64,000 bases of DNA from an uncultured Chloroflexota bacterium (GTDB lineage: Bacteria; Chloroflexota; Dehalococcoidia; Lucifugimonadales; GCA-002694895). The position numbers were made by a program, and so were the translations under genes. The stretch lies in the NCBI GenBank assembly GCA_913045935.1, contig CAJWSY010000003.1, positions 979-64,978 on the forward strand, in the 5' to 3' direction. Shown one piece after another: positions 1-32,958 of the stretch; within the stretch, counting starts at the first letter, position 1, and the number at the start of each line of letters is the position of its first letter. The notes under the pieces are model-generated. The model ran no database searches, was not told where the DNA came from, and saw nothing but the letters and a program-made list of their open reading frames with translations.

Positions 1-1023
1 AATCTTAATATTAAAAAATCATCTAATGCTAATGTTAATGTGTTTGTAAACAATAGAGTTATAAAAAATAAATTTTTTCATTATGCGATTGATAGAGCAT
101 ATGATTCCTTATTAGTAAAAGGAGAATTTCCTATTTGTACTCTTAATGTAGAAATAGATCCGTTGCTAATAGATTTGAATGTACATCCATCCAAAAATGA
201 AATTAAAATAAGAGACGAACGTAACTTATTCTCTCTTATCGAAAAACAAATACGTTTATCTTTAATTAACTCAAAATCTAACAATAAAAATAGTGAAATC
301 AGTATTTTGAATTATGATAGTGATTCAATAATAACAAGCGGTATAGAAACTTATTCAAATAAACTCTATACAGATAAAAAGAAACCTGTTATCCAATATG
401 CACAAAATTTATTTCAAGAATTTTCTTCTAATAATGATAATGATATTAAATTAGATTTAATTAAAGAATTCAGATTACTAGGTCAAATAAATAATTCATT
501 TATTCTAGGAGAATACAAAACTCAGATTGCTATTATTGATCAACATGCAGCACACGAAAGAATAAATTATGAAAAAATTTTATCTAATGCAAATCAAGAA
601 GTTATATCTCAGGAATTATTAAATCCTGTAATACTTAATTTGTCCGCAGAAGAAGATATATGGGTTCAAGAAAATATTGATCTTTTTATTTCTGTTGGAT
701 TTGAAATTGAATCATTTGGGATTACTAATCAATTAATTATCAGAAAATTACCATTACAATTTACAAAAGGTAATTTAGAGCGAAAACTACACAATTATAT
801 TTCAGAATTAAAAAACAATTCAAAAACTTCAGAAGATGAAAGATTGAAAACTTTAGCTTGTCACGCATCTATAGAATTTGGAGATTCTTTAACTCAATCT
901 GAAATATTTAATTTAATTGAAGAATTATCTTTATCTCAAGAACCTTGGAATTGTCCTCATGGAAGACCTACAATGATTAGATTAGATAACCAGCAATTAT
1001 ATAAATGGTTCAAAAGAATTTAA
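1..1023 (+). CDS. mutL: DNA mismatch repair protein MutL, C-terminal part (5' end lies upstream of the window)
   Basis: Frame 1 is open from base 1 (NLNIKKSSNANVNVFVNNR...), so the listed ATG at 40 is internal. It carries the MutL text NVHPSKNEIKIRDE, the endonuclease motif DQHAAHERINYE and the C-terminal CPHGRP. Confidence 0.9.
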   Translation, partial: NLNIKKSSNANVNVFVNNRVIKNKFFHYAIDRAYDSLLVKGEFPICTLNVEIDPLLIDLNVHPSKNEIKIRDERNLFSLIEKQIRLSLINSKSNNKNSEISILNYDSDSIITSGIETYSNKLYTDKKKPVIQYAQNLFQEFSSNNDNDIKLDLIKEFRLLGQINNSFILGEYKTQIAIIDQHAAHERINYEKILSNANQEVISQELLNPVILNLSAEEDIWVQENIDLFISVGFEIESFGITNQLIIRKLPLQFTKGNLERKLHNYISELKNNSKTSEDERLKTLACHASIEFGDSLTQSEIFNLIEELSLSQEPWNCPHGRPTMIRLDNQQLYKWFKRI

Positions 1024-2681
1024 ATTGCCCCATCGATATGAATATCAATTAAATTGGGCTTATTAGAATTAATACATTCTTTTAGTACAGAATTTATTTT
1101 TTCAGGGTCAGATATTGAATATGAATTAATATTGAAGCTTTTGGCTATTGTTTCAAAATCAAATTTCTGATCAAAATCCATTCCTAGATATTTACTATTT
1201 TTTTCAGAATTTAATTGTTGTTTATATATATCCATATTCAACTTTAATATTCTATATGTACTATTGTTGCACATAATATATGTTATAGGTATTTGGTTAA
1301 TCGAAGCGGTCCATAATGCCTGAACTGACATCATCCCTGTTCCATCTCCAACTAATGCAACTACATGCCTGTCTGGAAATGCTAATTTTACTCCTAGTGC
1401 GCCTCCCATTCCCCATCCTAATGAGCCTCCTCTGCCTCCAAAAATTGAATTTTCTTTTTCAAAATTCATAAATTTAAATATAGAGTTTGATGTAGTCACT
1501 GCATCATTAACAATAATTGTGTCTTCAGGTATGGCATTAGTTATTTCAGATATCATTCTATCTGGTGACATAGGGTTTTTACTATAATCTTTGTTAAGTT
1601 CTTTTGTATTCTTAATTTCCAGTTGTTCTTTCTCTTTTTTAAGCTCATGGTTTTTAGCGTTAAAATATTCAAGTTGATTTCCTGTTAGTAATTCTTCAAC
1701 TTTTGCGGTTAGTTTGTCTAGTGCTACACTTGGATCGGCTAAAATACCAATATCAGTTTTTTCTGTAGTTCCTACTTGCGCAGGATCATTGTCGATGTGA
1801 ATTAAATTAGATTCTGGGTTGAAAATACGCATTTTAGGATTGGAAAACATATAGCTTACTCTTGGCAATCCTCCTACAGCTAAAACTGTATCAAATTCTT
1901 CGAACTCATCTGATGAGTTGAACCCCAATTTTAGGTTGTTAATATAGTTTGGGTGTTTATTAGGAAAAATCATTTCAGAATAATTAGACGAATAAACTTT
2001 TGCTCCTAATAATTCAGCAAGTTTTGTAGGTATGAATGGAGATGTAGTTTGAACTAATCTGTCTCCAACTAATATTCCTATATTCTGAGACTTTACTAAT
2101 AGTTTGGCTGCTTCATAGATAGTTTTTTCGTCGGGTTTAATTACGATTTCTTCATTATAAGTTTCTGTTGGATATACATTAGTTTTATCATCTAAAGCAT
2201 TTGTAGTAAAAGCTACAAATGTAGGTCCAGTTGGAGGACTCATTGCTATACGAAATGCTTTTTGCATTGCCTGTGCAATAGCATCAGGGTGATTAACTTC
2301 AACAGCCCATTTTGTGAAAGGAGAAACCATATCGATTAAATCTGTTTTACCTGGAGCTATTTCTCTTGAATCTTTATTACCTGCAGTAAGAACAAGTGGC
2401 GTACCACCAGAGTGGGCGTTATGCAGCAAACTTAATCCATTAGCTAATCCGGTTTCAATATGTAGGTTAACAAAAGCAGGCTTTTTTGTTGCTCTAGCAT
2501 ATGCATCTGCCATTCCCATTGCCGCGGATTCTTGAACTGTTAGTATATATTCTAGCTCCGGATATTTTTCTAATGCATCCATGATAGCTGTTTCAGTTGT
2601 ACCAGGGTTCCCAAAAATATATTTTACTTTTTGCTTTTTTAATGATTCAAGTAATATATATTTACCTTCAATTTTTTTCAT
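1020..2681 (-). CDS. Thiamine diphosphate-dependent enzyme (benzoylformate decarboxylase / acetolactate synthase-like), substrate unknown
   Basis: 553-aa ORF. The N-terminal ThDP pyrimidine-binding domain reads FGNPGTTETAIMDAL...QESAAMGMADAYARATKKPAFVNLH. The C-terminal ThDP/Mg motif reads GDGTGMMSVQALWTA...CNNSTY. Confidence 0.8.
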   Translation of the reverse strand: MKKIEGKYILLESLKKQKVKYIFGNPGTTETAIMDALEKYPELEYILTVQESAAMGMADAYARATKKPAFVNLHIETGLANGLSLLHNAHSGGTPLVLTAGNKDSREIAPGKTDLIDMVSPFTKWAVEVNHPDAIAQAMQKAFRIAMSPPTGPTFVAFTTNALDDKTNVYPTETYNEEIVIKPDEKTIYEAAKLLVKSQNIGILVGDRLVQTTSPFIPTKLAELLGAKVYSSNYSEMIFPNKHPNYINNLKLGFNSSDEFEEFDTVLAVGGLPRVSYMFSNPKMRIFNPESNLIHIDNDPAQVGTTEKTDIGILADPSVALDKLTAKVEELLTGNQLEYFNAKNHELKKEKEQLEIKNTKELNKDYSKNPMSPDRMISEITNAIPEDTIIVNDAVTTSNSIFKFMNFEKENSIFGGRGGSLGWGMGGALGVKLAFPDRHVVALVGDGTGMMSVQALWTASINQIPITYIMCNNSTYRILKLNMDIYKQQLNSEKNSKYLGMDFDQKFDFETIAKSFNINSYSISDPEKINSVLKECINSNKPNLIDIHIDGAI

Positions 2682-3891
2682 TTTTTTCTCTTACATCAAT
2701 ACTTATAATAATTATTAGTGACAATAATATACATATTCCAAGAGATAATAAAGCAGTTGGTTGCCCAAGATTCAAAGTGGTTGCAATAAACCCCCAACTT
2801 GCTGTGCCAATTATACTTCCAAGCCTACCTGTAAATCCGTGAAGACCAAAATACTCTCCAATAAATTCATCAGATATTAATTGATGCATAAATGGCCTGT
2901 CACAACTCCATACCCCTGAAATTAATATCCCAGTCAACCCACTGATGACCCACCATATATTATTATCAAGATTAAATACGCCACTTCCGATTGATAATCC
3001 TAGATTTACTAGCCATATAACTAAAACTATTGTTATTATTCTCTTGGCACCATATGTGTCTACAAGTTTACCCCAAATTAAAGCAGAAGGTATTGCAGTG
3101 ACAATACCTGTAAAAATTAGATATTGTATTTCTCTTTCAGACATGCCTATTGTCTCTAAAATATATAAGGATGTAAAAGTGGATGCAGTGTATAGAGCCC
3201 ATGAATACCAAAATCTTGCTATTAGAAATTTTCCGAGGCCAGGAAAATCTTTAATATCTATTAATGTGCGAGAAATTTGGTTTAAAAATCTTTTACTTAA
3301 ACTTTTTGATGTTTTTAGGTAACGATTTTGGATTTCTTGAGGTTTTTCATTTAGAAAAATTAATATTGGTATTCCGAAAATAACAATTAAAATTCCTATA
3401 ATTGAAAAACCAATAGGATAACCTTGATTTTCTATTACAAGAAGCCCTATTACTATGGCTATGATAGCTCCGATGTAACCTATCCCTGCCCCTATTCCGC
3501 CTATTATTCCAATATTATTTTTATTACTAACATCTTTTAACATGGAGTTATAAAATATATCACCCAAATGAAGGCAAGTCACAGAAATCCCATAATATAT
3601 CAGACTTGTAATGAGTGAATTATTTCCAATAAAAGTTGTTGAAAATCCGCAGATTAATGTGAATAAACCTAAAAAAACTTTTCTATTTTTGGTTTGATCG
3701 GACAAAGCTCCAACCATAGGGCTAATTATCAAAGAAACTAATAATGCCAAAGATAAAGTGTACCCAACAGTTGCATCGGTACCATTTAATTTTGTGATTA
3801 TCCATAATGGAAAGAATAAACCAGTAACACCTGCATTAAATAAAGTATTACCTATATCATAAATTACCCAAGAAATAATAGATGCATTCAT
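2668..3891 (-). CDS. MFS transporter (UMF1/Atg22-like)
   Basis: 407-aa ORF with about 12 hydrophobic segments and an N-terminal WVIYDIGNTLFN typical of UMF1-type MFS proteins. Its stop overlaps the start of the downstream ThDP gene by 14 nt. Confidence 0.7.
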   Translation of the reverse strand: MNASIISWVIYDIGNTLFNAGVTGLFFPLWIITKLNGTDATVGYTLSLALLVSLIISPMVGALSDQTKNRKVFLGLFTLICGFSTTFIGNNSLITSLIYYGISVTCLHLGDIFYNSMLKDVSNKNNIGIIGGIGAGIGYIGAIIAIVIGLLVIENQGYPIGFSIIGILIVIFGIPILIFLNEKPQEIQNRYLKTSKSLSKRFLNQISRTLIDIKDFPGLGKFLIARFWYSWALYTASTFTSLYILETIGMSEREIQYLIFTGIVTAIPSALIWGKLVDTYGAKRIITIVLVIWLVNLGLSIGSGVFNLDNNIWWVISGLTGILISGVWSCDRPFMHQLISDEFIGEYFGLHGFTGRLGSIIGTASWGFIATTLNLGQPTALLSLGICILLSLIIIISIDVREKNEKN

Positions 3892-3903
3892 AATATTAAC
3901 TTT

Positions 3904-3998
3904 CGGGAGCGAGAGGGAATCGAACCCAACGCTTCAATAATTCAATTAAAGCCAACGGAGTTGAAGTCCGTGAAATCCACCAGAATTTATTCACTCCC
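3904..3998 (-). tRNA. selC: tRNA-Sec (anticodon UCA)
   Basis: The minus strand reads GGGAGTGA-AT-AAATTC-TGGT-GGATTT-C-ACGGA-CTTCAAC-TCCGT-TG-GCTTTAAT-TGAATT-ATTGAAGC-G-TTGGG-TTCGATT-CCCTC-TCGCTCCC-G. It has an 8-bp acceptor stem, a 6-bp D stem with a 4-nt loop, anticodon TCA, a 22-nt variable arm with an 8-bp stem, a canonical T loop and a total length of 95 nt. CCA is not encoded. Caveat: the T stem shows only 3 clean G-C pairs. Confidence 0.85.
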
Positions 3999-4005
3999 AA
4001 ATAAA

Positions 4006-4368
4006 TCAAGAAATAATTTTATCTAAACGTTCAGTTAATGTTGATTTGGGAACAGCGCCTACGATTTGATCAATTGCAGCACCATCTTTGAACACAAGTA
4101 AAGTAGGAATTCCTCTAATTCCAAAACTTGCAGCGGTTTGTGGATTAGAATCAACATCAAGTTTAGTAACTTTTAATTTACCATCATATTCATCAGATAA
4201 TTCTTCAACGATTGGTGAAACCATTTTACAAGGACCACACCATTCAGCCCAAAAATCAACTAATACGGGTAGATCAGAATTAAGTACTTCTTCATTAAAG
4301 TTATTATCGGTTATTTCTAAAGCAGCCAAGATTATTCTCCATTTAAATATAAAAGTAAAGAATATCAT
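4006..4368 (-). CDS. trxA: Thioredoxin
   Basis: The active site is WCGPC, in DFWAEWCGPCKMV. The ATG at 4368 adds 13 hydrophobic residues. A TTG at 4329, preceded by GGAGA with a 6-nt spacer, would give a typical thioredoxin of about 107 aa. Confidence 0.9.
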   Translation of the reverse strand: MIFFTFIFKWRIILAALEITDNNFNEEVLNSDLPVLVDFWAEWCGPCKMVSPIVEELSDEYDGKLKVTKLDVDSNPQTAASFGIRGIPTLLVFKDGAAIDQIVGAVPKSTLTERLDKIIS

Positions 4369-4403
4369 ACCGAGATTTAATCTAAAACATCTAAACCATA
4401 TAT

Positions 4404-4931
4404 TTATTTTGGCAGGTCAGATGTTATATCATCAGACTCTCTCCACCATAAAGTTAGCGGAGAAATATTTCGTTCAAGATCAAAAAGCATCCATCCTGTA
4501 ACTTCAAATCCCTTATTTAATTCAATATGGCCACTTAATAAAGGGGTGAATTTGTCTAGTTCTGCTTCTATGGATGAAGTTGAAACTGAGCTTTTATAAG
4601 GATCTATATTCCATCCTCTTGATCCACCTCTATCTCCTAATTCTGCAGCTTCAGTGTCTATAAATAGAGGAACGTATGTTACAGATTCATTGATTATTCT
4701 AACTTTTACTGCGACCAGCTTATTATTTGGTTTTGGTTTAATTAGCCTTATATTACCTTGTGTGTCTGTGAAACTTATTCTGTCTCTTACAATTGGAGCA
4801 AAAGTTTCTATTGCTATGGTTCTACCTTTAGTCAAATTTGATGAGGAATCATCATTTAAACAACTAGTGATCAAGACAGGCAATAATACTATAAAAAATA
4901 TTTTTTTTGTTTTTATTTTTTTTAATAACAT
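4404..4931 (-). CDS. Hypothetical lipoprotein
   Basis: 175-aa ORF with a signal peptide ending in the lipobox LITSC. The mature part is beta-rich and loosely DUF4352-like. I recognise no confident family. Confidence 0.5.
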   Translation of the reverse strand: MLLKKIKTKKIFFIVLLPVLITSCLNDDSSSNLTKGRTIAIETFAPIVRDRISFTDTQGNIRLIKPKPNNKLVAVKVRIINESVTYVPLFIDTEAAELGDRGGSRGWNIDPYKSSVSTSSIEAELDKFTPLLSGHIELNKGFEVTGWMLFDLERNISPLTLWWRESDDITSDLPK

Positions 4932-4943
4932 GATTTTTGCTGA

Positions 4944-6119
4944 TTATTTTCTAATAAATTCTTTTTTATTATCTTTAATTCTTTTTATAATTTTATCAAG
5001 AATATTTAAAAATTGCGTTATTTCATCTTCTGTATTATTTCTTCCTAAGCTTATTCTAACAGTGTTTAGAGCTAAATCAGCATCCATTCCGATAGCTTTG
5101 AGCACATGAGAAGGTTCTAAAGAATTGCTAGTACATGCACTTCCATTAGATATACAAATATCTTCTAAATCTAACGCTGATATTAAATCATCCGATCTTA
5201 TGTCTGGAAAAGTTAAATTAATCATGTTAGGCAGATTAAGTTTAGGATGTCCATTGATAAGTACATTTGGCTGCTGTTCTTTTAAATGATTTATAATTTT
5301 ATTTTTTAAAAATAAGCACTTATCGTAGTTAACTGTTTTTTCATTTTCAGATAATTTTATTGCTTCAGCTGAACCAGAAATAAAAGCTATATTTTCTGTT
5401 CCAGATCTTTTTTGTCTTTCTTGACCTCCTCCTGTAATTAGTGGTTCAAATGGTGTCCCGTTTTTCATAAAGAGCACACCTATCCCTTTTGGACCATTAA
5501 ATTTATGGGCAGACAGGCTCATTAAATCAACTCCTAATTTATTAACATCTAAATCTAAGAAAGGAGCAGCCTGTACTGCATCAGTATGGAAAATTGGGAA
5601 TTGTGAATTGTTGCCTTTGAGTTTTTTTATAGCTTCTCCTATTTCTTTTATTGGATTAATTGACCCAAGTTCATTATTTGCATAGATTACAGATATTAAA
5701 ATAGTGTTTGGTTTGATAGCAGATATCACATCATCTTTTGAAACCATTCCAAATTCATCAGTTGTTAGATATGTTATATCATAACCTTGTTTTTCAAGAT
5801 TATTGCACGTGTGTAATACTGCATGATGCTCAGTGGATGTTGTTATAATATGGTTACCTAAGTTTTTAAGAGCATGTGCAGGCCCTTTTATGGCAGTGTT
5901 ATCCGATTCTGTTCCTCCACTGGTAAATATTATTTCGCTTTCCTTGCAATTTAAAGTGTCCGCAAAAATTTTTCTTGATTGATCAACAGCTAGTCTTGAG
6001 TTTCTAGCAGGAGAATAAGGACTTGAAGGATTTGCAAATGAATTAATTAATTCATTATTTATTATTTCTAAAACTTCTTGTCTTATTTGTGTTGAAGCTG
6101 CATTATCGAGATAAATCAT
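4944..6119 (-). CDS. Cysteine desulfurase (NifS/IscS-like, class V aminotransferase)
   Basis: 391 aa. It starts IYLDNAAST, has the PLP-lysine motif SAHKFNGPKG and the C-terminal active-site loop SNGSACTS. Confidence 0.85.
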   Translation of the reverse strand: MIYLDNAASTQIRQEVLEIINNELINSFANPSSPYSPARNSRLAVDQSRKIFADTLNCKESEIIFTSGGTESDNTAIKGPAHALKNLGNHIITTSTEHHAVLHTCNNLEKQGYDITYLTTDEFGMVSKDDVISAIKPNTILISVIYANNELGSINPIKEIGEAIKKLKGNNSQFPIFHTDAVQAAPFLDLDVNKLGVDLMSLSAHKFNGPKGIGVLFMKNGTPFEPLITGGGQERQKRSGTENIAFISGSAEAIKLSENEKTVNYDKCLFLKNKIINHLKEQQPNVLINGHPKLNLPNMINLTFPDIRSDDLISALDLEDICISNGSACTSNSLEPSHVLKAIGMDADLALNTVRISLGRNNTEDEITQFLNILDKIIKRIKDNKKEFIRK

Positions 6120-6191
6120 TTTTAATTCGTGAAAATTAGATGTTAATTAAATTATATTAATAATATTATAATTGAATAATTTTATAATTGA

Positions 6192-6482
6192 ATGGTTATT
6201 AGAATATATATGGCAGCAAATAAAAAATCTAAATCATCTGATCTTTCTAAGATCATTTTGTCAATATTTACACTTTCAGGGTTGTTAACAGGATTGTTAT
6301 TAGGCGTAGATTTTATATCTGTTTTGTTAATTACAATCTTATTAATATTTGGTATATTTTATGTCCGCACTGAAGAACAATATTCAAACATTGAATTTGG
6401 GAATAATTCTATAAAATTTCTAGCGTCCGTTAACTGCCTGTTATTTTGGATTATTGGAATTATGATCAATTCTGTAATTTAA
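6192..6482 (+). CDS. Hypothetical small membrane protein
   Basis: 96-aa ORF with about 3 hydrophobic helices. No motif recognised. It fills the only gap before the lldD-like gene. Confidence 0.35.
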   Translation: MVIRIYMAANKKSKSSDLSKIILSIFTLSGLLTGLLLGVDFISVLLITILLIFGIFYVRTEEQYSNIEFGNNSIKFLASVNCLLFWIIGIMINSVI

Positions 6483-6493
6483 GTACTTAGTTT

Positions 6494-7645
6494 ATGTTTG
6501 GGAATATAAAAAATTGTAATAATACCGATGATTTTAGGAATCTAGCTAAATCAAAATTACCTTCTCCAGTTTTTCATTATATTGACGGAGGAGCTGACGA
6601 CGAAATAACTCTCAAAAGAAATAGAGATTCTTATGAAACTTGCGATCTTGTTCCTAATGTCCTAAAGGGAGTAGAAGAGGTAGATATTTCCACAACAGTA
6701 ATGGGTCAAAAAATAGATATGCCATTATTTTGCTCACCTACTGCAGTCCAAAGATTATTTCACTACGATGGAGAACGAGCAGTTTCCAAAGCAGCACAAA
6801 AATTTGGAACCATGTTTGGTGTTTCTTCTTTAAGTACAGTTAGTTTGGAAGAAATTGGAAAATCAATTTCAACTCCCAAAATGTTTCAAATGTATTATCA
6901 TAAAGATAGAGGACTTACTGAAAGTATGCTTGAAAGATGTCATGAATCGAACTTTGACGTTTTAGCTTTGACTGTAGATACCATAGTGACAGGTAACAGG
7001 GAAAGAGATTTAAGAACAGGATTTTCTATGCCTTTAAGATTGTCATTAGAAAGTATTTTAAGTTTCATTACACATCCCATGTGGGGTATAAATTTTTTAT
7101 TAAGAGAAAAATTTGATTTACCAATTTTAAAAGATCATATACCCGAAGCAAATTTTGCTATTTCTTTATCAGATTATTTTTCTAAAATGCTCGATCAATC
7201 TATGAATTGGAAAGATGCTGAAGAATTGAGAAAAAAATGGGGTAAACAGTTTTGCCTAAAAGGAATAATGAGCGTAGAAGATGCGAAAAGAGCAGTTGAT
7301 ATAGGTGCTACAGGTATAATTTTATCTAATCATGGCGGAAGACAACTAGATGGTAGCAGATCTCCTTTTGATCAATTATCTGAAATTGTTGATGCTGTTG
7401 GAGATAAAATAGATATTATATGCGAAGGTGGGATTACAAGAGGTACACATGTACTTAAAGCTTTAAGTTTAGGAGCTAAAGCTTGTAGTGGTGGCAGAAT
7501 GTATTTATATGCACTAGCTGCAGGAGGGCAAAAAGGAGTGGAAAAAGCACTTTCTAATTTAAGAAACGAAATGATTAGAGATATGAAATTAATGGGGTGC
7601 ACTAAAATATCTGACTTGAAAAGAGATAATATTAGATTTAGATAA
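6494..7645 (+). CDS. FMN-dependent alpha-hydroxy acid dehydrogenase (L-lactate dehydrogenase/glycolate oxidase family)
   Basis: 383 aa. Family text includes PSPVFHYIDGGADDE, SNHGGRQLD and a C-terminal GGITRG. Confidence 0.8.
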   Translation: MFGNIKNCNNTDDFRNLAKSKLPSPVFHYIDGGADDEITLKRNRDSYETCDLVPNVLKGVEEVDISTTVMGQKIDMPLFCSPTAVQRLFHYDGERAVSKAAQKFGTMFGVSSLSTVSLEEIGKSISTPKMFQMYYHKDRGLTESMLERCHESNFDVLALTVDTIVTGNRERDLRTGFSMPLRLSLESILSFITHPMWGINFLLREKFDLPILKDHIPEANFAISLSDYFSKMLDQSMNWKDAEELRKKWGKQFCLKGIMSVEDAKRAVDIGATGIILSNHGGRQLDGSRSPFDQLSEIVDAVGDKIDIICEGGITRGTHVLKALSLGAKACSGGRMYLYALAAGGQKGVEKALSNLRNEMIRDMKLMGCTKISDLKRDNIRFR

Positions 7646-8852: not shown

Positions 8853-10460
8853 ATGACTCATGGAATAATCACAGCACCACAACCAGAAGCAGTTGAAACT
8901 GGAGCTCTAGTATTACAAGCTGGAGGAAATGCAGTTGATGCTGCTATTTCTAGTGCGCTTGTTCAAACTGTAGTAGATCCTATGATGTGCGGAATTGCAG
9001 GATTTGGTTCGTTGCAATTATATTTACCAGATAAAAATTTTCATGGATTTATAGATTTTCATACAACAGCGCCTTCTTCTGTGAGTGAAAGTATGTGGGA
9101 AAACCAAATTTCACATGAAGCTAGAGATGGATTTGGTTTTATTTTAAAAAACAGAGCAAATGAAGTTGGTTATGAATCAATAATGACACCAGGTACTTTG
9201 AAAGGATTTTATGAAGCAATAAAAGAGTACGGAACTATGCCTTGGGACAAAATTATTCAACCAGCAATAGATTTTGCTTCGGAAGGATTTTCGATTAGTC
9301 CTGCTATTGATGAATTTTGGGATAGATCTGCTGGTCATGGAAGAATTTCTATGGATGAGAAACTTAGATTAAACCAAAATGCTAGGCGTATATATTTAGA
9401 TGAAAATGGGAATACTTACCCTATCGGAACTCGTATTAAGAATCTAGATATGTTGAATACATTAGAAAAGATCAGAGATCAAGGTATCGAATCTTTTTAC
9501 TCAGGTGAAATAGCAAACAAGATAGTTAAGGATATGAAAGTACACAAAGGATTTTTATCTTTAAAGGATTTAGAAGATTATAAAACAATTCGAAATGAAC
9601 CACTTTGGGGTGAGTACAAAGATATGAAAGTTGCAACTAATCAACCTCCAGGTGGAGGAATTATGGTTATCCAAATGCTTAATATTTTAAATAACTTTGA
9701 TTTACGATCCATGGGACATAATAGCCCTGAATATATTGCTACTGTTTCTGAAGCAATGAAATATGCAACAATCGATAAAGACGCAAAAGTTGGAGACCCT
9801 GATTATCTAGATGTTCCAATTACACAGTTAACAGACCCTCTATATGCACGAGAAATTGCAGATTTAATTAAAAATGGTGTTAGAGCAGATGTGATTAGGT
9901 ATGGTGATTCAAAAGAGTCTGAAGATACTACACATATAGCTGTAATGGATGAATTAGGGAATACTGCTTCAATGACACATTCTTTAGGAATGCCTTCAGG
10001 TGTAATTACAAATGAATTAGGTTTTATGTATAACGGATGTATGAGCGTATTTGATCCCAGGTCAGGCAGAACAGGATCGATAAAGCCGGGTAAAAGAAGA
10101 TTTACCGGAATGAGTCCAACAATAATTTTCAAGGATGACAAACCCCATGTGGTAGTTGGAGCTCCGGGTGGTACATATATAACTATGGGAGTGTTGCAAT
10201 CAATACTAAATGTTGTTGAGTTTGATATGAATATGCAAGAAGCTGTTTCTGCTCCACGTTTTACTGCAAACAGTAATGCTATTGATGTTACAAACCGTAT
10301 TCCTAGATTCGTAACTAAAGAATTAGAAAATAAAGGTTATGAAGTAATTCGAAATCCATTTAGTTATGGTTTTGCAGGAGTTCATGGAATCAGGATAAAA
10401 AATGGTATTTGGGATGGAGGGGCTGATCCAGGTAGAGATGGTATGGTATTGTATATATAG
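8853..10460 (+). CDS. ggt: Gamma-glutamyltransferase (copy 1)
   Basis: 535 aa. The Ntn autoprocessing threonine sits in the context SEDTTHIAVMD. PGGGI and the C-terminal GGADPGRDG are present. Confidence 0.9.
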   Translation: MTHGIITAPQPEAVETGALVLQAGGNAVDAAISSALVQTVVDPMMCGIAGFGSLQLYLPDKNFHGFIDFHTTAPSSVSESMWENQISHEARDGFGFILKNRANEVGYESIMTPGTLKGFYEAIKEYGTMPWDKIIQPAIDFASEGFSISPAIDEFWDRSAGHGRISMDEKLRLNQNARRIYLDENGNTYPIGTRIKNLDMLNTLEKIRDQGIESFYSGEIANKIVKDMKVHKGFLSLKDLEDYKTIRNEPLWGEYKDMKVATNQPPGGGIMVIQMLNILNNFDLRSMGHNSPEYIATVSEAMKYATIDKDAKVGDPDYLDVPITQLTDPLYAREIADLIKNGVRADVIRYGDSKESEDTTHIAVMDELGNTASMTHSLGMPSGVITNELGFMYNGCMSVFDPRSGRTGSIKPGKRRFTGMSPTIIFKDDKPHVVVGAPGGTYITMGVLQSILNVVEFDMNMQEAVSAPRFTANSNAIDVTNRIPRFVTKELENKGYEVIRNPFSYGFAGVHGIRIKNGIWDGGADPGRDGMVLYI

Positions 10461-11912: not shown

Positions 11913-13121
11913 ATGTTCGAAATTATAGAAAATGGAAATGTAACTACTCCCAAAGGCTTTATAGCTGGTGGGACAAATGTTGGTATAAAAACAGATGTTG
12001 AGGAATTAGATTTAGGAATTTTATGGTCTGAATTACCAGACACAACATGCTCTGGTGTATTTACAAGTAATTCTGTTGTTTCTCCCTCTGTTACAGCATC
12101 TAAAACTAATTTATCCAAAAAGAAAATTAGAGGTGTTGTTGCAAATAGTGGATGTGCAAATTGTTCTGTAGGAGAACAAGGATTGATTGACGCTATAGAT
12201 GTCATGAAATTATCATCAGATTTTTTAAATTCTAATCCAGAAAATTTGGCAATATGTAGTACTGGAATTATTGGTGAAGAATTACCAATGGCTTTGATAA
12301 GAAAAAATATATCTAAATTAAATTTATCTCAAACAGGCGGAAACGATTTTGCTAAATCTATACTTACTACAGATACAAAAACCAAAGAAATTGCAGTAAG
12401 TGTAAATTTAAATGGTGAGCAAATTTTAATAGGAGGATGTGCTAAAGGAGTTGGGATGATTCATCCAAATATGGCAACCATGCTAGCCTTTATTACAACC
12501 GATGTATCAATAGATCAAAAACTTCAAGATGATTTACTAAAAAATGTTGTGAATAATACTTTCAATCAAATAAGTGTAGATGGAGATCAGTCAACAAATG
12601 ATACAGTGTTATTTTTTGCTAGCGGCGCTTCGAATACGAATATTACTGATATTTCTTCAGATGATCATGCTAATTTTATGGAAGCATTTGAGTATGTATG
12701 TGAGTATTTAGCAAAAGAACTTGTTTCTGATGGTGAGGGCTCAAATCATGTTATTGAATGTGAAATTAGTGGAGCATTAAGTAATGAAGAAGCAAAAATG
12801 GCTTCAAGAAATGTAGTTAGCTCATCTCTGATAAAAGCTATGGTTCACGGGAGAGACCCAAATTGGGGTAGGGTTATGATGGCTTTGGGTAAAAGTGAAA
12901 TAAAACTTGAAGAAAATAAAATTGATATTTATATAAATGATATCCATATTGCTCATGAAGGTAAAGCTATCCCTTTTTCAAAAGAATCTGTAATTACATC
13001 TATGAATGAAAAAGAAATCAAAATTAAAATAGAACTAAATTTAGGAAATCATACAGGAATTGCATGGGGATGCGATTTAACAGAAGAGTATGTCATATTT
13101 AATTCAGCATATAGTACGTGA
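11913..13121 (+). CDS. argJ: Bifunctional glutamate N-acetyltransferase / amino-acid acetyltransferase
   Basis: 402 aa. It carries GCAKGVGMIHPNMATMLAFITTD, including the self-cleavage A|T site. Confidence 0.95.
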   Translation: MFEIIENGNVTTPKGFIAGGTNVGIKTDVEELDLGILWSELPDTTCSGVFTSNSVVSPSVTASKTNLSKKKIRGVVANSGCANCSVGEQGLIDAIDVMKLSSDFLNSNPENLAICSTGIIGEELPMALIRKNISKLNLSQTGGNDFAKSILTTDTKTKEIAVSVNLNGEQILIGGCAKGVGMIHPNMATMLAFITTDVSIDQKLQDDLLKNVVNNTFNQISVDGDQSTNDTVLFFASGASNTNITDISSDDHANFMEAFEYVCEYLAKELVSDGEGSNHVIECEISGALSNEEAKMASRNVVSSSLIKAMVHGRDPNWGRVMMALGKSEIKLEENKIDIYINDIHIAHEGKAIPFSKESVITSMNEKEIKIKIELNLGNHTGIAWGCDLTEEYVIFNSAYST

Positions 13122-14019
13122 TGTTATGTTAAATGATAAACCTTCAAACCAAGATTTAAATGATATCCAATCTAATAAGATTGATAAAGAAAAACTGATA
13201 TCTAAAAAAGATAATAACCCATTAGATTCATATCTTTTAGAAAAAACTATAGTGGTAAAAGTTGGGGGCAGTACATTGAGTTTTGAGGATACTACTTTGA
13301 GTGATGTTGTCAGACTTAAATCACAAGGATATTTCCCTGTGATTGTACATGGCGGTGGAGCAGACATATCAGATTGGATGAAAAAAATTGGCAAAAGACC
13401 AAAATTTATGGATGGAAGAAGAGTCACGGATAAAGAAACGTTAAATATAGTAATTTCTGTTTTGGCTGGAAAAGTAAATACAGAAATGGTTAATCAAATA
13501 AACATATTAGGAGGCAAAGCAATTGGTTTAAGTGGTGTTGACGATGGATTAGTTACTGCTAAAATGCAGAATCCTAATTGGGGATATGTTGGTGAAGTCG
13601 ACAAAGTTAAAAGTAAATCTATTTTTGAGTTGGTAAAATTAGGATATATTCCAGTAATTGCACCTTTGTGTTTAAATTCCAAACCTCAGTCGGACGATCA
13701 AATATTAAATGTAAATGCCGATAGTGTTGCAGGGGAGATTGCTAGATCAATTAAAGCAAATAAACTAATATTTATTACTGATGTTCCTGGAGTTTTGGAT
13801 ATTTCTAGAAGAGTAATGCCTAAACTAGTTTCCACACAGGTTAAAAAATTGGTAAAAAACTCTTTCATCTCAGGAGGCATGATTCCTAAATTAGAAGCAT
13901 GTTTAAATTCTGTAACTAATGTTAAGGAAGCCCATATTATAGATGGAAGAAAATCAGGAGCATTGTTTTCTGTAGTAACAAAAAAGGGATTTAATAAAGG
14001 AACAATAATAGTTAAATAG
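13090..14019 (+). CDS. argB: Acetylglutamate kinase
   Basis: Motifs are VVKVGGS, VIVHGGG and NVNADSVAG. The listed start overlaps argJ by 32 nt. An in-frame ATG at 13126, 4 nt after the argJ stop, is an alternative start. Confidence 0.9.
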   Translation: MSYLIQHIVRDVMLNDKPSNQDLNDIQSNKIDKEKLISKKDNNPLDSYLLEKTIVVKVGGSTLSFEDTTLSDVVRLKSQGYFPVIVHGGGADISDWMKKIGKRPKFMDGRRVTDKETLNIVISVLAGKVNTEMVNQINILGGKAIGLSGVDDGLVTAKMQNPNWGYVGEVDKVKSKSIFELVKLGYIPVIAPLCLNSKPQSDDQILNVNADSVAGEIARSIKANKLIFITDVPGVLDISRRVMPKLVSTQVKKLVKNSFISGGMIPKLEACLNSVTNVKEAHIIDGRKSGALFSVVTKKGFNKGTIIVK

Positions 14020-14027
14020 GAGATGAA

Positions 14028-16766
14028 GTGAATAATAATACTGAAAATTTACAAATACCCGATGCAATGAAAAATTTTTCAATCAAGTATATATTGATAA
14101 TAATTTTATCTCTTGTTGGTTTGATATTTGTAGCAAATATATTTAAAAACATTTATACCGAATATTTGTGGTTTACTCATCTTAGTTATGAGGATATTTA
14201 TTTTAAAATTTTAAGAACAAAAATCTATTTATTTCTAGGTGCGTTCTTTGTTTCGTTATTATTTTTATCTGTTAGCACATATTTTGCATTCAAGAATTCT
14301 TGGAAAGGTGTTCAATTTGATTTACCTGAACCTTTTAATTTACTTGGACCAAAATTATATAAATCAATAATAGTGTTACTCGTTATATTAACGAGTGTTG
14401 TTCTTGGATTAACTACTTCTTATAATTGGGAACTATTTTTAAGATTTTTTAATTCTTCTACTTTTGCAATAAATGACCCTATTTTTAATCGAGATATATC
14501 ATTTTATATTTTTGATTTTCCAATTTTCACTTTTATTCAAAAAGGATTATTAATTATCTCGATTTTATCAATGATATATAGTTTGGCAATTATATTTATA
14601 AATTCTGTTTTTGCTGGATTAGAATTTAGTGAAAATACGATAATGAAAAAACAAATGATAATAAATTTTTCTATCATTTTATTATTGTTTAGTATAGGTA
14701 TTCTTTTTTCGAGATGGAATATTCTTTTTTCTGAAACAGGAGTTGTATATGGAGCTGGCTACACTGATGCAAATATTAAAATGAATACTTTGTTTTTCAT
14801 GTCATTTCTAGGATTTATTTTATCTGTATTAGTGTTGTTTTCTCTTAAATATTCTTTAACCAGATTTGTGTATATACCTACTGTAGCTTGGGTGGTTTTA
14901 TATATTATATCAGTAGTTATTTGGCCTTCTGTAACACAAAGATTATCTGTAACTCCAAATGAATATGTTAAAGAAAAACAATATATTTCTAATAATATTG
15001 ATTTAACAAGAAAAGCATACAAATTAGATTTAATTGAAGAAAGTTATTTCCCCGCAAGCTCTAAAATACCAGAATCTATTTTGACTCAAAATAATCAGAC
15101 TTTAAATAATATAAGATTATGGGACTACAAGCCACTAAAAGATGTTTATACTCAAACGCAGCTGATTAGGCCTTATTACGATTTTAAAGATGTGGATGTA
15201 GATAGATATACTATAGATGGAGAGTACAGACAAGTTATGTTGGCTTTAAGAGAAGTCGCACCTGAAAAATTGGACGAAAACAAACAAACTTGGGTAAATA
15301 CATTTTTACAATATACTCACGGTTATGGTTTAACTATGAGCCCTGTTAATTCATTTGACTCTCAAGGGAAACCGTATTTTTTCTCAAAAGATATACCTTC
15401 GGATGGAATAATAAATGTTAAGTCTATGGATGGTAATATACAAAAAGATTTGTCTGTTGAAAATCCAAGAATATATTACGGTGAATCATCATCTCCTTAC
15501 GTGATAGTAAACACTAAAACCATGGAGGTTGATTACCAAGAAAAAGGCAAAGATGGAAAAGAAGGAGTACTCAGAAGACATAATTATGCTGGGTCGGGTG
15601 GTGTTACTCTTGATAGCGTGATAAAAAGAATTTTTTATGCTTGGAAATTTAGAGACATAAATATATTCATTAGTGGAGAAATTACTAGTGAAAGCAAAAT
15701 TCAATATCAAAGAAATATATTAGAGAGAGTTAAAAAATTAGTTCCGTACTTAGAATTGGATTCTGACCCTTATGTAGTTATAACTGATGGAAAATTAAAA
15801 TGGATACAAGATGCATATACAGTATCTGCGAATTACCCTTACTCTGAGCCATCAAATAACGGCTATAATTATTGGAGAAATAGTGTTAAAGCTGTTATAG
15901 ACGCTTATGATGGCACTGTTGAATTTTACATATCAGATAACTCAGACCCTTTGATTGATACCTACTCTAAAATATTTCCTAATGTATTCAAACCAATAAG
16001 TGATATGCCTTCTGATCTTAAAGATCATATAAGATATCCAATTGATTTGTTTAAAGTGCAATCAGAAAAGTATTTAGAATATCATATGCAAGATTCCCAA
16101 ATATTTTATAACAATGAGGACCTATGGAATATTCCAAGAGAAAAATTTGGACAATCAGGCGAGTTACAAAATGTGGAGCCTTACTATATTGTTATGAATT
16201 TACCAGGAAATGACGATTCTGAGTTTGTACTTATCAGGCCATTTACTCCTAATCAAAGAAAAAACTTGATTGGCTGGCTAGCAGGAAGGAGTGATGGAGA
16301 TCAATATGGTAAATTAATTGCTTATAATTTTCCTAAGGATCTTACTATTTACGGTACCGAACAAATAGAAGCTAGAATGGATAATGATCCTATTATTTCC
16401 GAATGGTTTACATTAAGATGTCAAGAAGGATCTTTTTGTATAAGAGGGAATCTTTTAGTTGTACCAATAGGTGATACTATATTGTATGCCGAGCCTATTT
16501 ACTTGCAAGCTGAAGGTGTAGATTTACCGGAATTAAAAAAAGTTGTATTAGCTTCTGCTGATCATGTGATAATGGCCGATTCAGTAAAAGAGGGAGTATC
16601 GATATTACTTGAAAAACAAGCTGGTATTTATAATCAAAATGATAAAGTTTTAGAAGACAAAGAAACTAAACAAGAAAGTATTGATGATGATTTGGATGAG
16701 AAAATAGAAAAATTACTTGAAGAAATTCAAAATATTTTAAATGAAGTAAGAAAAGCAAACAAATAA
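14028..16766 (+). CDS. UPF0182-family large membrane protein (function unknown)
   Basis: 912 aa with a GTG start. The N-terminal third has about 7 hydrophobic helices and is followed by a large soluble region. RLWDYKPL, PYYDFKDVDVDRY and LQYTHGYG are recalled as characteristic of UPF0182. Confidence 0.75.
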   Translation: MNNNTENLQIPDAMKNFSIKYILIIILSLVGLIFVANIFKNIYTEYLWFTHLSYEDIYFKILRTKIYLFLGAFFVSLLFLSVSTYFAFKNSWKGVQFDLPEPFNLLGPKLYKSIIVLLVILTSVVLGLTTSYNWELFLRFFNSSTFAINDPIFNRDISFYIFDFPIFTFIQKGLLIISILSMIYSLAIIFINSVFAGLEFSENTIMKKQMIINFSIILLLFSIGILFSRWNILFSETGVVYGAGYTDANIKMNTLFFMSFLGFILSVLVLFSLKYSLTRFVYIPTVAWVVLYIISVVIWPSVTQRLSVTPNEYVKEKQYISNNIDLTRKAYKLDLIEESYFPASSKIPESILTQNNQTLNNIRLWDYKPLKDVYTQTQLIRPYYDFKDVDVDRYTIDGEYRQVMLALREVAPEKLDENKQTWVNTFLQYTHGYGLTMSPVNSFDSQGKPYFFSKDIPSDGIINVKSMDGNIQKDLSVENPRIYYGESSSPYVIVNTKTMEVDYQEKGKDGKEGVLRRHNYAGSGGVTLDSVIKRIFYAWKFRDINIFISGEITSESKIQYQRNILERVKKLVPYLELDSDPYVVITDGKLKWIQDAYTVSANYPYSEPSNNGYNYWRNSVKAVIDAYDGTVEFYISDNSDPLIDTYSKIFPNVFKPISDMPSDLKDHIRYPIDLFKVQSEKYLEYHMQDSQIFYNNEDLWNIPREKFGQSGELQNVEPYYIVMNLPGNDDSEFVLIRPFTPNQRKNLIGWLAGRSDGDQYGKLIAYNFPKDLTIYGTEQIEARMDNDPIISEWFTLRCQEGSFCIRGNLLVVPIGDTILYAEPIYLQAEGVDLPELKKVVLASADHVIMADSVKEGVSILLEKQAGIYNQNDKVLEDKETKQESIDDDLDEKIEKLLEEIQNILNEVRKANK

Positions 16767-16785
16767 TTAATTAAAAGGAATAGTT

Positions 16786-17982
16786 ATGGATGAGCAAAAT
16801 TGGAAAGATATGGAATCAAAATATTATATGCATGCGGCAAATAGATACCCAATGGTAATTGAAAGAGGAGAGGGTACTAAATTATGGGATGTAAATGGTA
16901 ATGAATATTTAGATTTTACTTCTGGGTGGGCAGTTAATAATATAGGTCATTCTAATTCAGTTGTCGCAGATGCTATCGAAAAACAATCAAAGACTTTACT
17001 TCAGACATCAAATGTTTTCTACACCATACCTCAACTTAGACTAGCAGAAATATTAATTGAAAACAGTGTTTTGGATAAAATTTTTATTTGTAATAGTGGT
17101 GCTGAGGCAAATGAAGGTGCAATTAAATTAGCTAGAAAATGGGGGAGGCAAAATAAAAATGGAGCTAATAAAATTTTAACTGCTTTTGATTCTTTTCACG
17201 GAAGAACTATTTCTACACTTGCCGCCACAGGGCAACCAAAATATCATGAAACTTTTATGCCAGTAACAGAAGGATTTGATTATTTTGAATTAAATAATAT
17301 TGATTCATTGAAATCTAAAATTGATGATAATACGGTAGGTATAATGATAGAAGTTGTTCAAGGAGAAGGTGGCGTTAACATTTGTTCTCAAGAATTTGTC
17401 CAAAATGTTCGAAAAATCTGTGATGATAAAAACATAATAATGATTATAGATGAAGTTCAAACAGGTATAGGAAGATTAGGCTCATTTTATGGATATGAAA
17501 AATTTGGAGTTGAACCAGACGTTATAACTCTAGCAAAAGGACTAGGAGCAGGTGTTCCTATTGGGGCTATACTAGCAAAAACTGAATATTCTGTTTTTGT
17601 ACCAGGCGATCATGGATCAACTTTTGGTGGAAATGCTTTAACATCTGCAGCAGCATATGCTTCGAGTAAATTTATTTTAGAAAATGATATTCCTAATAAT
17701 GTTAATCAATTGGGATCGTATTTTTTGAGCAAATTAAACGAATTAACTAGTAAGTTTGAAATAATATCTGAAATCAGAGGTATGGGGTTATTAATTGCAA
17801 TTGAATTTAGCTCAGATATAGCTGCAGATTTGATTAATGAATGTAATAGAAATGGATTGTTAGTTAATGCAGTAAGACCTAATGCAATAAGATTTATGCC
17901 TCCACTTACAGTATCTGAAGAGGAAATATCTGAGGCAATGGTTAAGTTTACATCAGCAATAGAATCTGTTTTAAGAAAATAA
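16786..17982 (+). CDS. argD: Acetylornithine aminotransferase
   Basis: 398 aa, class III aminotransferase. Motifs are NSGAEANEGAIKLAR and DEVQTGIGRLG. It sits in an arg gene context. Confidence 0.9.
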   Translation: MDEQNWKDMESKYYMHAANRYPMVIERGEGTKLWDVNGNEYLDFTSGWAVNNIGHSNSVVADAIEKQSKTLLQTSNVFYTIPQLRLAEILIENSVLDKIFICNSGAEANEGAIKLARKWGRQNKNGANKILTAFDSFHGRTISTLAATGQPKYHETFMPVTEGFDYFELNNIDSLKSKIDDNTVGIMIEVVQGEGGVNICSQEFVQNVRKICDDKNIIMIIDEVQTGIGRLGSFYGYEKFGVEPDVITLAKGLGAGVPIGAILAKTEYSVFVPGDHGSTFGGNALTSAAAYASSKFILENDIPNNVNQLGSYFLSKLNELTSKFEIISEIRGMGLLIAIEFSSDIAADLINECNRNGLLVNAVRPNAIRFMPPLTVSEEEISEAMVKFTSAIESVLRK

Positions 17983-19247
17983 TGAATTATAAAGAGCTTT
18001 TAAATAGTAAAAAAACAAATTTGGTAGGGGCTGTTTCTGGAGGTTTAGATAGTTGCACAATAACTTCTTGGCTAAAAGAAAAAGGATTTAACTTAAAATG
18101 TTTAACTGTTGATTTAGGTCAACCAGATGAAGAAAATATTGAAGCTGTTGCTGATAGAATGAAAGCATGTGGTGCTACTGAAGCTTTGATAGTAAATGGA
18201 CTAGATAAGCTAGCACAATTTGGATTGAAAGTTATTCAATCTCAAGCTAAATACGAGGGTGGATATTGGAATACAACTGGGATTGCAAGACCAGTCACAG
18301 TTGCTTGTATGCTAGATCATTTCAAGTCATTTGATTCGTCTTATTTATTTCATGGAGCGACCGGACGTGGCAATGATCAAGTAAGATTTGAATTGGCAAC
18401 CAAAATGTTAAATCCTGATATAAATGTTTATGCCCCATGGAGAGATCATTATTTTTTATCAGACTTTCCAGGTAGAGCGGAAATGATTGATTATTGTGAA
18501 TTGAAAAAATTACCAATCAAACCAAAATCCGAGTCAAGATATTCAACTGATGCTAATCTTTTAGGACTAACTCATGAAGCAGGTGATTTAGAAGATATTG
18601 AACAATCTCCTTATGATTTTGTAGAACCTGGCATGGGCAAATGGCCTTGGGATACAAAACTCAAACAAGAAATTATTTCTATTACCTGGGAAAATGGTAC
18701 TCCAACTCATATCAACGGAGAATCATATTCATTGGTTAATATTTTTAAAATGTTAAATGAAATAGGTGGGAATCATGGTATAGGAATAGGTATTCATGCT
18801 GTTGAAAATAGATTTTTAGGAATAAAGTCAAGAGGGATATATGAATCTCCATCTATGGAATTGTTAGGAGAGTGTTATGAATTTTTATTGCAATTAGTTT
18901 TAGACAGAAGAATGAGAAATTATTTTGATGAATTGTCTTCTACGATATCTAGACAAATATATGAAGGTTTTTGGTTTGATACAACTACCAATATAGCACT
19001 GAGTAGTTTGTCTAAAATTTCAAATATGATTTCTGGGACGGTAGTTCTTCGATTATTTAGAGGAAAAGTTTATTTTGAAAAAATAGATGATTTAAGTAAT
19101 GTTGATAAATCTTTATATACTGATGATTCGTCAATGGAAAATTTAGGTGAATTTAATCATGAAGATTCACAAGGGTTTTTAAATATTTTAGGTCTTAATG
19201 CTAAAAATCTTGGCATTAAACATAACTCAAATAATATCACAGATTGA
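17982..19247 (+). CDS. argG: Argininosuccinate synthase
   Basis: 421 aa. The PP-loop reads AVSGGLDSCT, and HGATGRGNDQVRFE is present. Confidence 0.9.
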   Translation: MNYKELLNSKKTNLVGAVSGGLDSCTITSWLKEKGFNLKCLTVDLGQPDEENIEAVADRMKACGATEALIVNGLDKLAQFGLKVIQSQAKYEGGYWNTTGIARPVTVACMLDHFKSFDSSYLFHGATGRGNDQVRFELATKMLNPDINVYAPWRDHYFLSDFPGRAEMIDYCELKKLPIKPKSESRYSTDANLLGLTHEAGDLEDIEQSPYDFVEPGMGKWPWDTKLKQEIISITWENGTPTHINGESYSLVNIFKMLNEIGGNHGIGIGIHAVENRFLGIKSRGIYESPSMELLGECYEFLLQLVLDRRMRNYFDELSSTISRQIYEGFWFDTTTNIALSSLSKISNMISGTVVLRLFRGKVYFEKIDDLSNVDKSLYTDDSSMENLGEFNHEDSQGFLNILGLNAKNLGIKHNSNNITD

Positions 19248-19257
19248 TTAAATTTTT

Positions 19258-20403: not shown

Positions 20404-20413
20404 AGGAAATATA

Positions 20414-20884
20414 ATGGAAATAGATGTATATGAATCTTATGGCAGATTTTATGAAGAATTCAGTGTGGGTATGAAATTTAAACATTGGCCTGGTAAGACA
20501 ATAACTCAATCGGACAATCATAATTTTTGTATGCTTACCATGAATCATAATCCATTACATATTGATGTTGAATATATGAAAAATCATCAACACAAAAAAC
20601 CACTTGTTGTTGGATTATTAACATTAAGTTTAATAGTAGGAATGACTGTTCAAGAGTTGTCTGGGAAAGCAATTGCTAATTTAGGTTATGAAAAAGTGAA
20701 ACATGAAGGTCCTGTTTTTGAAGGTGATACAATTCATGCTTTATCAGAAGTGATAGATATGAGAGAAAGTAAATCTAATCCAAATGCAGGTATAGTTAAA
20801 GTTCAGACATTGGGTTACAATCAAAACGACCAAAAAATATTAACCTTAATAAGAAATATTTATATTCCAAAGAAAATTAATTAA
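20414..20884 (+). CDS. MaoC-like (R)-specific enoyl-CoA hydratase/dehydratase (hot-dog fold)
   Basis: 156 aa with the motif NHNPLHID. It starts 10 nt after the acyl-CoA dehydrogenase. Confidence 0.8.
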   Translation: MEIDVYESYGRFYEEFSVGMKFKHWPGKTITQSDNHNFCMLTMNHNPLHIDVEYMKNHQHKKPLVVGLLTLSLIVGMTVQELSGKAIANLGYEKVKHEGPVFEGDTIHALSEVIDMRESKSNPNAGIVKVQTLGYNQNDQKILTLIRNIYIPKKIN

Positions 20885-32442: not shown

Positions 32443-32958
32443 ATGAAATCTTTTTTTATATTTTTAACACTATTTATTTGCTTGATTGCTTGTTCTTCAC
32501 AAGAAATAACTACATCGACACAAAATAATCAAACAAGTGAACCCGAAGTAATTTCTTCTGCTTTTTCTTTTGTTTTCGATTCAGGACGTGAACTATCTGA
32601 TAAGACAATTAAAGATTCAGGGATGTCTCATTTCCTGTATTTTTTCACCCCCACCTGAGGTCATTGTATTTCTGAGTTGCAGAAAATAGTTTCAAAATCT
32701 GACGAATTATCTAATACAAAATTTGTAGCAATATCTATTGATCCTTCAATGAAAGAAAGTGAATTTCAGAAATTTAGAGATAAAAATAACCTTAGTGAAT
32801 TAGATATGCTTCCATATAATAAAGAAATGATTTTATTTTTTGAAATTAGCATGAGAGGTTCCAAACGAATTTTAAATCAAAATTCTAATTTGATTTACTC
32901 AGGAAATATGTCAGATTACGAATTTGACTTGTGGAAGGAATTATTAAATGAACAATAA
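32443..32958 (+). CDS. Thioredoxin-fold (TlpA/ResA/redoxin-like) lipoprotein with in-frame UGA; candidate selenoprotein with a UGHC redox motif
   Basis: ORF-track fragments 32443-32658 and 32677-32958 are in the same frame, separated only by TGA (32656-32658) plus 6 sense codons. The joined text reads ...SHFLYFFTPT-U-GHCISELQKIV...KFVAISIDPS..., matching the FWAxWCxxC...V.vs.D layout of TlpA-like redoxins with the TGA at the first Cys position. The N-terminus is a lipoprotein signal (LIACSS). The second fragment has no ATG of its own, only an internal TTG. A hairpin follows the TGA. Confidence 0.75.
32663..32690 (+). promoter_or_regulatory. Candidate bacterial SECIS stem-loop downstream of the in-frame UGA
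   Basis: The upper stem TTTCTG (32669-32674) pairs with CAGAAA (32680-32685) around the loop AGTTG. This is a 17-nt element beginning 11 nt after the TGA codon. The lower stem ATTGT (32663-32667) pairs with ATAGT (32686-32690), including two G-U pairs, and A32668 is bulged. Confidence 0.5.

Follow-up and report, generated by a model that had tools for sequence, protein, structure and literature searches.

The tRNA-Sec of Escherichia coli is the molecule against which others of its kind are usefully read. Three of its pairs, C7-G66, G49·U65 and C50-G64, reject EF-Tu and serve as identity elements for SelB, and its strongest serylation element is G73 (PMC9976931). Departures from this design have been described: a non-canonical 8/4 tRNA-Sec with a bulge at 51a has been reported in Actinobacteria and some Chloroflexi, and the same work describes the allo-tRNAs (Mukai et al., PMC5389517). 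Use of selenocysteine (Sec) in Dehalococcoidia is already on record, since two MAGs of this class are in the top ten of bacteria by number of selenoprotein genes, with 49 and 46 (PMC13326102). The genome-streamlined SAR202 of the euphotic ocean have a GC content of 29-33% and genomes of 1.1-2 Mbp; the paper that describes them makes no mention of selenium (PMC11994032).

The DNA considered here, a stretch of 64,000 nucleotides to which we refer as the window, comes from a host of about 30% GC that matches the genome-streamlined SAR202 type of marine Dehalococcoidia. We are confident that the element at 3904-3998 is a functional selC of this low-GC marine lineage, and that some UGA codons are decoded as Sec. 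The argument draws on the tRNA itself, on its conservation among relatives and on a client gene elsewhere in the window.

The initial annotation placed a tRNA-Sec gene here, in the most GC-rich non-coding spot of this part of the window, and both statements hold. ARAGORN calls a tRNA-SeC on exactly these coordinates of the minus strand, with the anticodon tca at position 35. The Rfam family RF01852 (tRNA-Sec) matches 3905-3998 of the same strand over the full model (1-91), with 63.7 bits against a curated gathering score of 47 (E 1.2e-10); the weak T stem, flagged at the outset as a possible reason for a covariance model to fail, is not disqualifying. The GC content of the gene is 46%, in a window of about 30%. 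The minus-strand sequence is GGGAGUGAAUAAAUUCUGGUGGAUUUCACGGACUUCAACUCCGUUGGCUUUAAUUGAAUUAUUGAAGCGUUGGGUUCGAUUCCCUCUCGCUCCCG, and its minimum-free-energy fold is the cloverleaf, at -32.8 kcal/mol (z = -3.79); none of 200 shuffles was as stable. The parts that had been picked out by eye are all in that fold: an acceptor stem of 8 bp (GGGAGUGA/UCGCUCCC), as in tRNA-Sec; a D stem of 6 bp closed by a 4-nt loop (AAAUUC-UGGU-GGAUUU), the feature recognized by SelA; the loop CTTCAAC, here on an anticodon stem of 5 bp; and a variable arm of 22 nt, which forms a stem-loop of 8 bp and 6 nt. The discriminator, G73 (position 95), and the long variable arm are together what SerRS identity calls for. The only other RNA gene found in the window by ARAGORN and Rfam is tRNA-Gly(UCC), at 53297-53372. 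Taken alone, the selC finding is correct but routine, an annotation that standard tools produce automatically. The features discussed below are collected in Table 1.

Table 1. Positions in the window of selC, its neighbors and the selenoprotein gene
Feature	Position	Strand	Remarks
ThDP-dependent enzyme (benzoylformate decarboxylase/acetolactate synthase-like)	1020..2681	-	Pfam, NCBIfam; 14-nt overlap with the end of the MFS gene
MFS (ATG22-like) transporter	2668..3891	-	Pfam MFS_1 and ATG22; orthologs of 72-88% identity directly after selC in 7 relatives
selC, tRNA-Sec gene	3904..3998	-	95 nt; anticodon UCA; discriminator G; CCA not encoded
T arm UUGGG-UUCGAUU-CCCUC	3913..3929	-	Three Watson-Crick pairs only (G-C x3)
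Anticodon UCA	3962..3964	-	tRNA positions 35-37; 7-nt loop CUUCAAC; invariant in 8/8 species
trxA, thioredoxin, WCGPC	4006..4368	-	PF00085 E 6.8e-34; TIGR01068 131 bits, cutoff 96.8
Block GAACGTTTAGATAAAATTAT, 3' end of trxA	4013..4032	-	Conserved at synonymous sites; candidate internal promoter or selC processing signal
Small lipoprotein, unknown function	4404..4931	-	Signal and lipobox; weak DUF4352 match; syntenic in relatives
NifS/IscS-type class-V cysteine desulfurase	4944..6119	-	PF00266 (Aminotran_5) E 9.9e-74
Selenoprotein gene, 171-aa thioredoxin-fold lipoprotein, active site U-G-H-C	32443..32958	+	TGA-joined ORFs; conserved orthologs
In-frame UGA (Sec) codon	32656..32658	+	
SECIS-like hairpin UUUCUG-AGUUR-CAGAAA (putative)	32669..32685	+	Starts 10 nt after UGA; second loop base G; consensus fold

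Relatives were sought by scanning the MFS protein against one genome per GTDB species. The seven retrieved at 72-88% identity are MAGs of marine Dehalococcoidia/Chloroflexota with 29-31% GC, one of them SAR202-LRMED-127, and around selC they are fully syntenic with the window. The assemblies with this locus are JBJLGN01 (SAR202-LRMED-127), PAHZ01 (NAT190), NZNN01 (EAC84), JAPYRX01, CAZMBU01, CATLOZ01 and CAYTCC01. In all seven a tRNA-SeC immediately precedes the MFS gene (ARAGORN; Rfam 58-63 bits), so that the slot trxA-selC-MFS is common to eight species; the gaps in the relatives are 8-10 nt between trxA and selC and 12-25 nt between selC and the MFS gene. An identical MFS protein is present on Tara Oceans and JGI marine metagenome contigs. 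A more distant homolog of the MFS protein, 43% identical, was tried as a means of dating the insertion and set aside: it lies on a 63%-GC Dehalococcoidia sequence (L012), in a different context, with no selC nearby.

The eight genes support the cloverleaf jointly. Standard pairs occupy 92.2% of the pair cells of the alignment, against 43-52% when the 3' partners are slid. Changes on both sides, that is, compensatory ones, are found in four stem pairs, of which three belong to the D stem and the fourth to the variable arm, and the observed covariation score was reached by one of 500 shuffles. Pairing across the eight species reaches 98-100% in the acceptor, D and anticodon stems (acceptor 98.4%, D 100%), in organisms whose proteins have diverged to 66-90% identity. 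Two of the relatives, L008 and L010, share the change A28G, which turns A-U into G·U, together with U45C in the adjacent unpaired linker (alignment columns 38 and 55). This co-occurrence is not explained by the cloverleaf as drawn, and the pair count does not class it as compensatory.

The T stem had been called weak, and it is. Beyond its three G-C pairs it has U·C at 49:65 and U·U at 50:64, and neither position shows standard pairing in any of the eight species; these non-paired layers are the two next to the acceptor stem. The arm is identical in seven of the eight, and the N-containing assembly L007 has one T-loop base changed; because the arm never varies, its pairing is a matter that covariation cannot decide. 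On the 3' strand five nucleotides lie between the T loop and the acceptor stem, and the branch therefore has 13 layers, as in an 8/5 tRNA-Sec: the strand lengths fit, yet three of the five T-stem positions form standard pairs.

For comparison we took E. coli selC, the sequence of which was verified against 5,425 genomes, and tRNA-Sec genes on unrelated contigs that bear SelD, of which seven of eight could be parsed. All five T-stem positions are paired in E. coli selC and in the seven parsed genes. Several of the unrelated genes have instead a mismatch at the eighth acceptor pair. Five of them (L031, L034, L037, L068 and L106) have a fully paired T stem (GUGGG/CCCAC) and a purine-purine mismatch at that pair, which is another irregularity of the same acceptor/T junction.

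One way to understand the unpaired layers is to look at their position in the helix. The U·C and U·U of the SAR202 gene coincide with the layers of the pairs by which the E. coli molecule rejects EF-Tu and is recognized by SelB; they are probably this lineage's version of an irregularity in the helix that EF-Tu rejects and SelB accepts. A bolder perspective supposes that the clade-wide U·C/U·U is a distinct structural solution to the sorting of tRNA-Sec, in which a partly unpaired junction, in effect 8+2+3, replaces antideterminant pairs of specific sequence. We put this forward tentatively, and think it rather doubtful. If it is true, the SelB and SelA of genome-streamlined SAR202 would have co-evolved with an unusually flexible tRNA-Sec. 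The conserved non-paired layers offer a small, testable case of how tRNA-Sec is kept from EF-Tu.

A tRNA with the anticodon UCA raises the question of what UGA means in this genome. TGA is the stop of 12 of the 57 window genes (21%), and the read-through extensions are short. UGA is therefore not reassigned genome-wide, and global reassignment (code 4 or 25) is ruled out, as the genes that end at TGA end where expected. Decoding of particular UGA codons is another matter. Two ORFs linked through a single TGA occupy the sole large unannotated gap of the window (32164-32947, 784 nt). The protein read through it begins with a lipoprotein signal (...LIAC) and carries the motif FFTPT-U-GHC, in which the alignment sets U opposite the first Cys of CGHC in TXNDC5/PDI (FFAPW-C-GHC) and of CxxC in the thioredoxin-like 2m72.

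Public catalogs list eight full-length homologs of this protein (P0001-P0008), all with ‘W’ at the Sec site. In the DNA of the homolog loci L024-L028 (49-60% identity), the codon is TGA in every case, and rpiB follows the gene, just as it does in the window. The ‘W’ thus arose when short (~1-kb) contigs were translated with code 4. Upstream and downstream of the TGA alike, the ORF is open and the protein conserved, in orthologs as distant as 49% identity. The public protein search retrieved no Cys-containing homolog, the Pfam matches (Thioredoxin_8, AhpC-TSA) lie below the gathering scores, and no NCBIfam model matches; placement in a family is therefore approximate.

The segment that follows the UGA is under constraint at the nucleotide level. 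Over 33 nt, counted from the UGA, orthologs share 91-97% identity, with flanks at 56-75%; in this zone 8 of 9 synonymous sites have the same codon, versus 19 of 51 elsewhere. Within this segment lies a hairpin that looks like a SECIS, the signal in the mRNA by which Sec is inserted. It is short and AU-rich (-4.4 kcal/mol), and no more stable than shuffles of the same 60 nt; it matches no Rfam family; and, being invariant, it draws no support from covariation. A conserved in-frame UGA at the position of a redox-active Cys, followed by a SECIS-like hairpin, is what one looks for in a Sec-decoded gene, and this gene has both. No further credible selenoprotein gene emerged from TGA-joined ORFs, TGA read-through extensions and upstream TGA segments of the window and its flanks. 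The Sec decoding that had been read from selC alone thus gains the support of two detectors, of covarying relatives and of a selenoprotein gene in the same window.

Pfam identified no selA, selB or selD among window ORFs of at least 110 aa, and none was found within 10 kb past either end of the window or in the flanks of the seven relatives. The SelD motif D[VI]TGFGxxGH, written with AT-biased codons, was also sought in metagenome contigs, and at least 120 contigs matched. Among the matches listed, many are true SelD genes, several carry an active-site Sec and some are fusions of NifS with SelD. None of those same matches could be assigned to this lineage: the GC-normalized tetranucleotide correlation with the window is at most 0.63, where known DNA of the lineage gives 0.62-0.87, and no genes are shared with lineage DNA. 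Four of the low-GC contigs (L044, L046, L047 and L081) have ORFs of 742, 662, 742 and 745 aa at the motif; that of L046 (2870-4855, minus strand) is a NifS-like/SelD fusion by sequence, and the other three are assumed from their size to be fusions. L070, L092 and L148 have ORFs of 727-765 aa as well. A gene for the CCA-adding enzyme (PolyA_pol and PolyA_pol_RNAbd domains) does lie close by, about 8 kb beyond the window start (L016, 18523-19749), which fits a selC without an encoded CCA.

The neighbors of selC are those named by the initial annotation: a NifS-like gene, a lipoprotein gene, trxA, the MFS gene and the ThDP-dependent enzyme, co-directional on the minus strand, with identities borne out by Pfam and NCBIfam. 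The spacing given there is also right (7 nt from the trxA stop, TGA at 4006-4008, to selC, and 12 nt from selC to the MFS ATG at 3891), apart from the gap between trxA and the MFS gene, which is 114 nt rather than 113. Public gene calls start trxA at an internal ATG, for a protein of 107 aa. In the window trxA stops at TGA; six of the seven relatives have TAA there, and L007 has an unreadable TNA. The speculation that the NifS-like protein might act as a Sec lyase found no specific support: the SclA model scores 99.5 bits against a cutoff of 525, and the best NCBIfam models are the generic NifS (421 bits) and IscS (345 bits). NifS-SelD fusions exist in other organisms, but nothing ties the NifS-like gene of the window to selenium.

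How selC is expressed can be considered in two ways. The packing is tight, the genes are co-directional and a promoter and terminator scan of 900-6600 found no terminator-like site at the gene junctions; co-transcription is therefore compatible with the arrangement, and excision of selC from a polycistronic transcript is plausible. The other possibility lies within trxA. Near its 3' end a block uses identical codons at six of seven conserved residues, versus 16 of 68 elsewhere in trxA (seven species, Fisher p = 0.002). Inside the block is a -10-like TAAAAT (4021-4016), 17 nt upstream of the 5' end of the tRNA; the match to the promoter consensus is TCAACA-17-TAAAAT, with a -35 that is not conserved among relatives, and one base of the hexamer differs in L007, an assembly rich in Ns. 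Promoter-like matches in the AT-rich DNA of 900-6600 are not enriched (30 versus 30 ± 6.4), and the scan alone is uninformative. The conserved block that bears TAAAAT may be an internal promoter or a processing signal, as an alternative or an addition to co-transcription. Transcription of selC is probably shared with its neighbors, or starts within the 3' end of trxA, or both.

The rest of the window offers some observations of its own. An arginine-biosynthesis cluster (11913-22244) contains argJ, argB, argD, argG and argH; between argB and argD lies the gene of a 912-aa UPF0182 membrane protein (14028-16766), and between argG and argH are those of an acyl-CoA dehydrogenase and a MaoC hydratase. 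Within the 64 kb of this streamlined genome there are two gamma-glutamyltranspeptidase paralogs (8853-10460 and 27007-28644) and two genes for exporters of the TauE/SafE family (33392-34171 and 39889-40731). Two conserved ORFs have no Pfam or NCBIfam match, one of 152 aa beside thioredoxin reductase (23908-24366, minus strand) and one of 407 aa (54755-55978, plus strand).

Other accounts of the element must be weighed. One of them, that a tRNA-like fold arose by chance in a GC-rich spacer, has nothing in its favor beyond the weak T stem. It is refuted already by the Rfam match (E 1.2e-10), the conserved position and the covariation; with 0/200 shuffles as stable, and with position and covarying stems repeated in seven other species, its probability is negligible. 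A look-alike is a different proposal: an allo-tRNA for serine, or a tRNA-Cys of the selC* type, would carry the UCA anticodon and suppress UGA by way of EF-Tu or a SelB paralog, inserting Ser or Cys. Known tRNAs of these kinds first came to notice as false positives in covariance searches for tRNA-Sec (PMC5389517); the unusually weak T stem does make the present tRNA less than fully canonical. The details of the molecule point the other way, as its discriminator is G73 where the selC* tRNA-Cys has U73 (PMC5389517), and its acceptor/T branch has 13 layers (8 plus 5 nt, counted on the 3' strand) where allo-tRNAs have 12. So does the client gene: the recoded UGA takes the place of the catalytic Cys of CGHC, and a conserved hairpin comes after it, an arrangement to be expected of insertion that depends on SelB and SECIS. 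A suppressor borne by EF-Tu, moreover, would compromise the fifth of window genes (21%) for which TGA is the normal stop. We consider a look-alike very unlikely.

The remaining account makes selC a relic: the Sec pathway has been lost, or is being lost, in the course of streamlining, and the lipoprotein gene with its internal TGA is a pseudogene. In favor of this proposal, roughly 84 kb of the genome showed no sel genes, and streamlined genomes shed accessory pathways (PMC11994032). Relics, however, would not be expected to look like this. The tRNA has been kept with compensatory substitutions in eight species with proteins at 66-90% identity; the lipoprotein ORF is conserved on both sides of an invariant TGA, down to 49% identity; and two dead genes kept across species are not expected of a streamlined genome of 1.1-2 Mb. 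This account, too, is highly improbable.

A functional selC, then, is the reading that we adopt, and its working can be sketched from the established bacterial pathway. The selC RNA would be cut from its precursor and given its CCA end by the CCA-adding enzyme; SerRS would charge it with serine by way of G73 and the long variable arm; SelA would convert the seryl form to Sec-tRNA-Sec, with selenophosphate from SelD; SelB would deliver Sec-tRNA-Sec to those UGA codons that have a SECIS hairpin behind them. At least one client lies in the window itself: a secreted thioredoxin-fold lipoprotein, in which the catalytic CxxC has become UGHC.

Nothing in these results changes existing knowledge of how Sec decoding works. 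Their interest lies in the organism: genome-streamlined SAR202, the dominant SAR202 type of the sunlit ocean, keeps selenocysteine decoding. A streamlined ocean genome of 1.1-2 Mb may pay to keep the whole Sec apparatus, with one client gene seen in roughly 84 kb. A further implication concerns annotation, for standard gene callers split the client gene, and public catalogs mistranslate it with Trp at the Sec site.

Set beside known systems, both genes are recognizable and both depart in particulars. The client shares with the UxxC thioredoxin-fold selenoproteins of marine bacteria (TlpA/ResA/DsbE-like, Prx-like) a lipoprotein signal, a thioredoxin-like domain, Sec in place of the N-terminal Cys and a hairpin past the UGA; it differs from those marine UxxC families (thiol:disulfide oxidoreductase and others) in that its Pfam matches lie only below the gathering scores. 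The tRNA has the layout of E. coli selC: an 8-bp acceptor, a 2-nt linker, a 6-bp D stem with a 4-nt loop, a 5-bp anticodon stem, UCA, a long variable arm, a T arm of 5+7+5 nt and G73. In contrast to E. coli selC, it has U·C and U·U where that gene has G·U (49:65) and C-G (50:64), its variable stem-loop is longer (22 nt), and it has no encoded CCA; nor is it adjacent to selA or selB, lying instead between trxA and the MFS gene, 7 nt from the one and 12 nt from the other. The resemblance to the 8/4 tRNA-Sec and the allo-tRNAs (PMC5389517) is of another sort: it includes the occurrence in Chloroflexota, an imperfect 8/5 branch, a D arm like that of tRNA-Sec and a long variable arm. Allo-tRNAs and selC* are known by a 12-bp branch (8/4 or 9/3), or by U73 with Cys identity (PMC5389517); the SAR202 tRNA has G73, and a branch of 13 layers rather than 12, which contains no bulge and presents two consecutive pyrimidine-pyrimidine oppositions.
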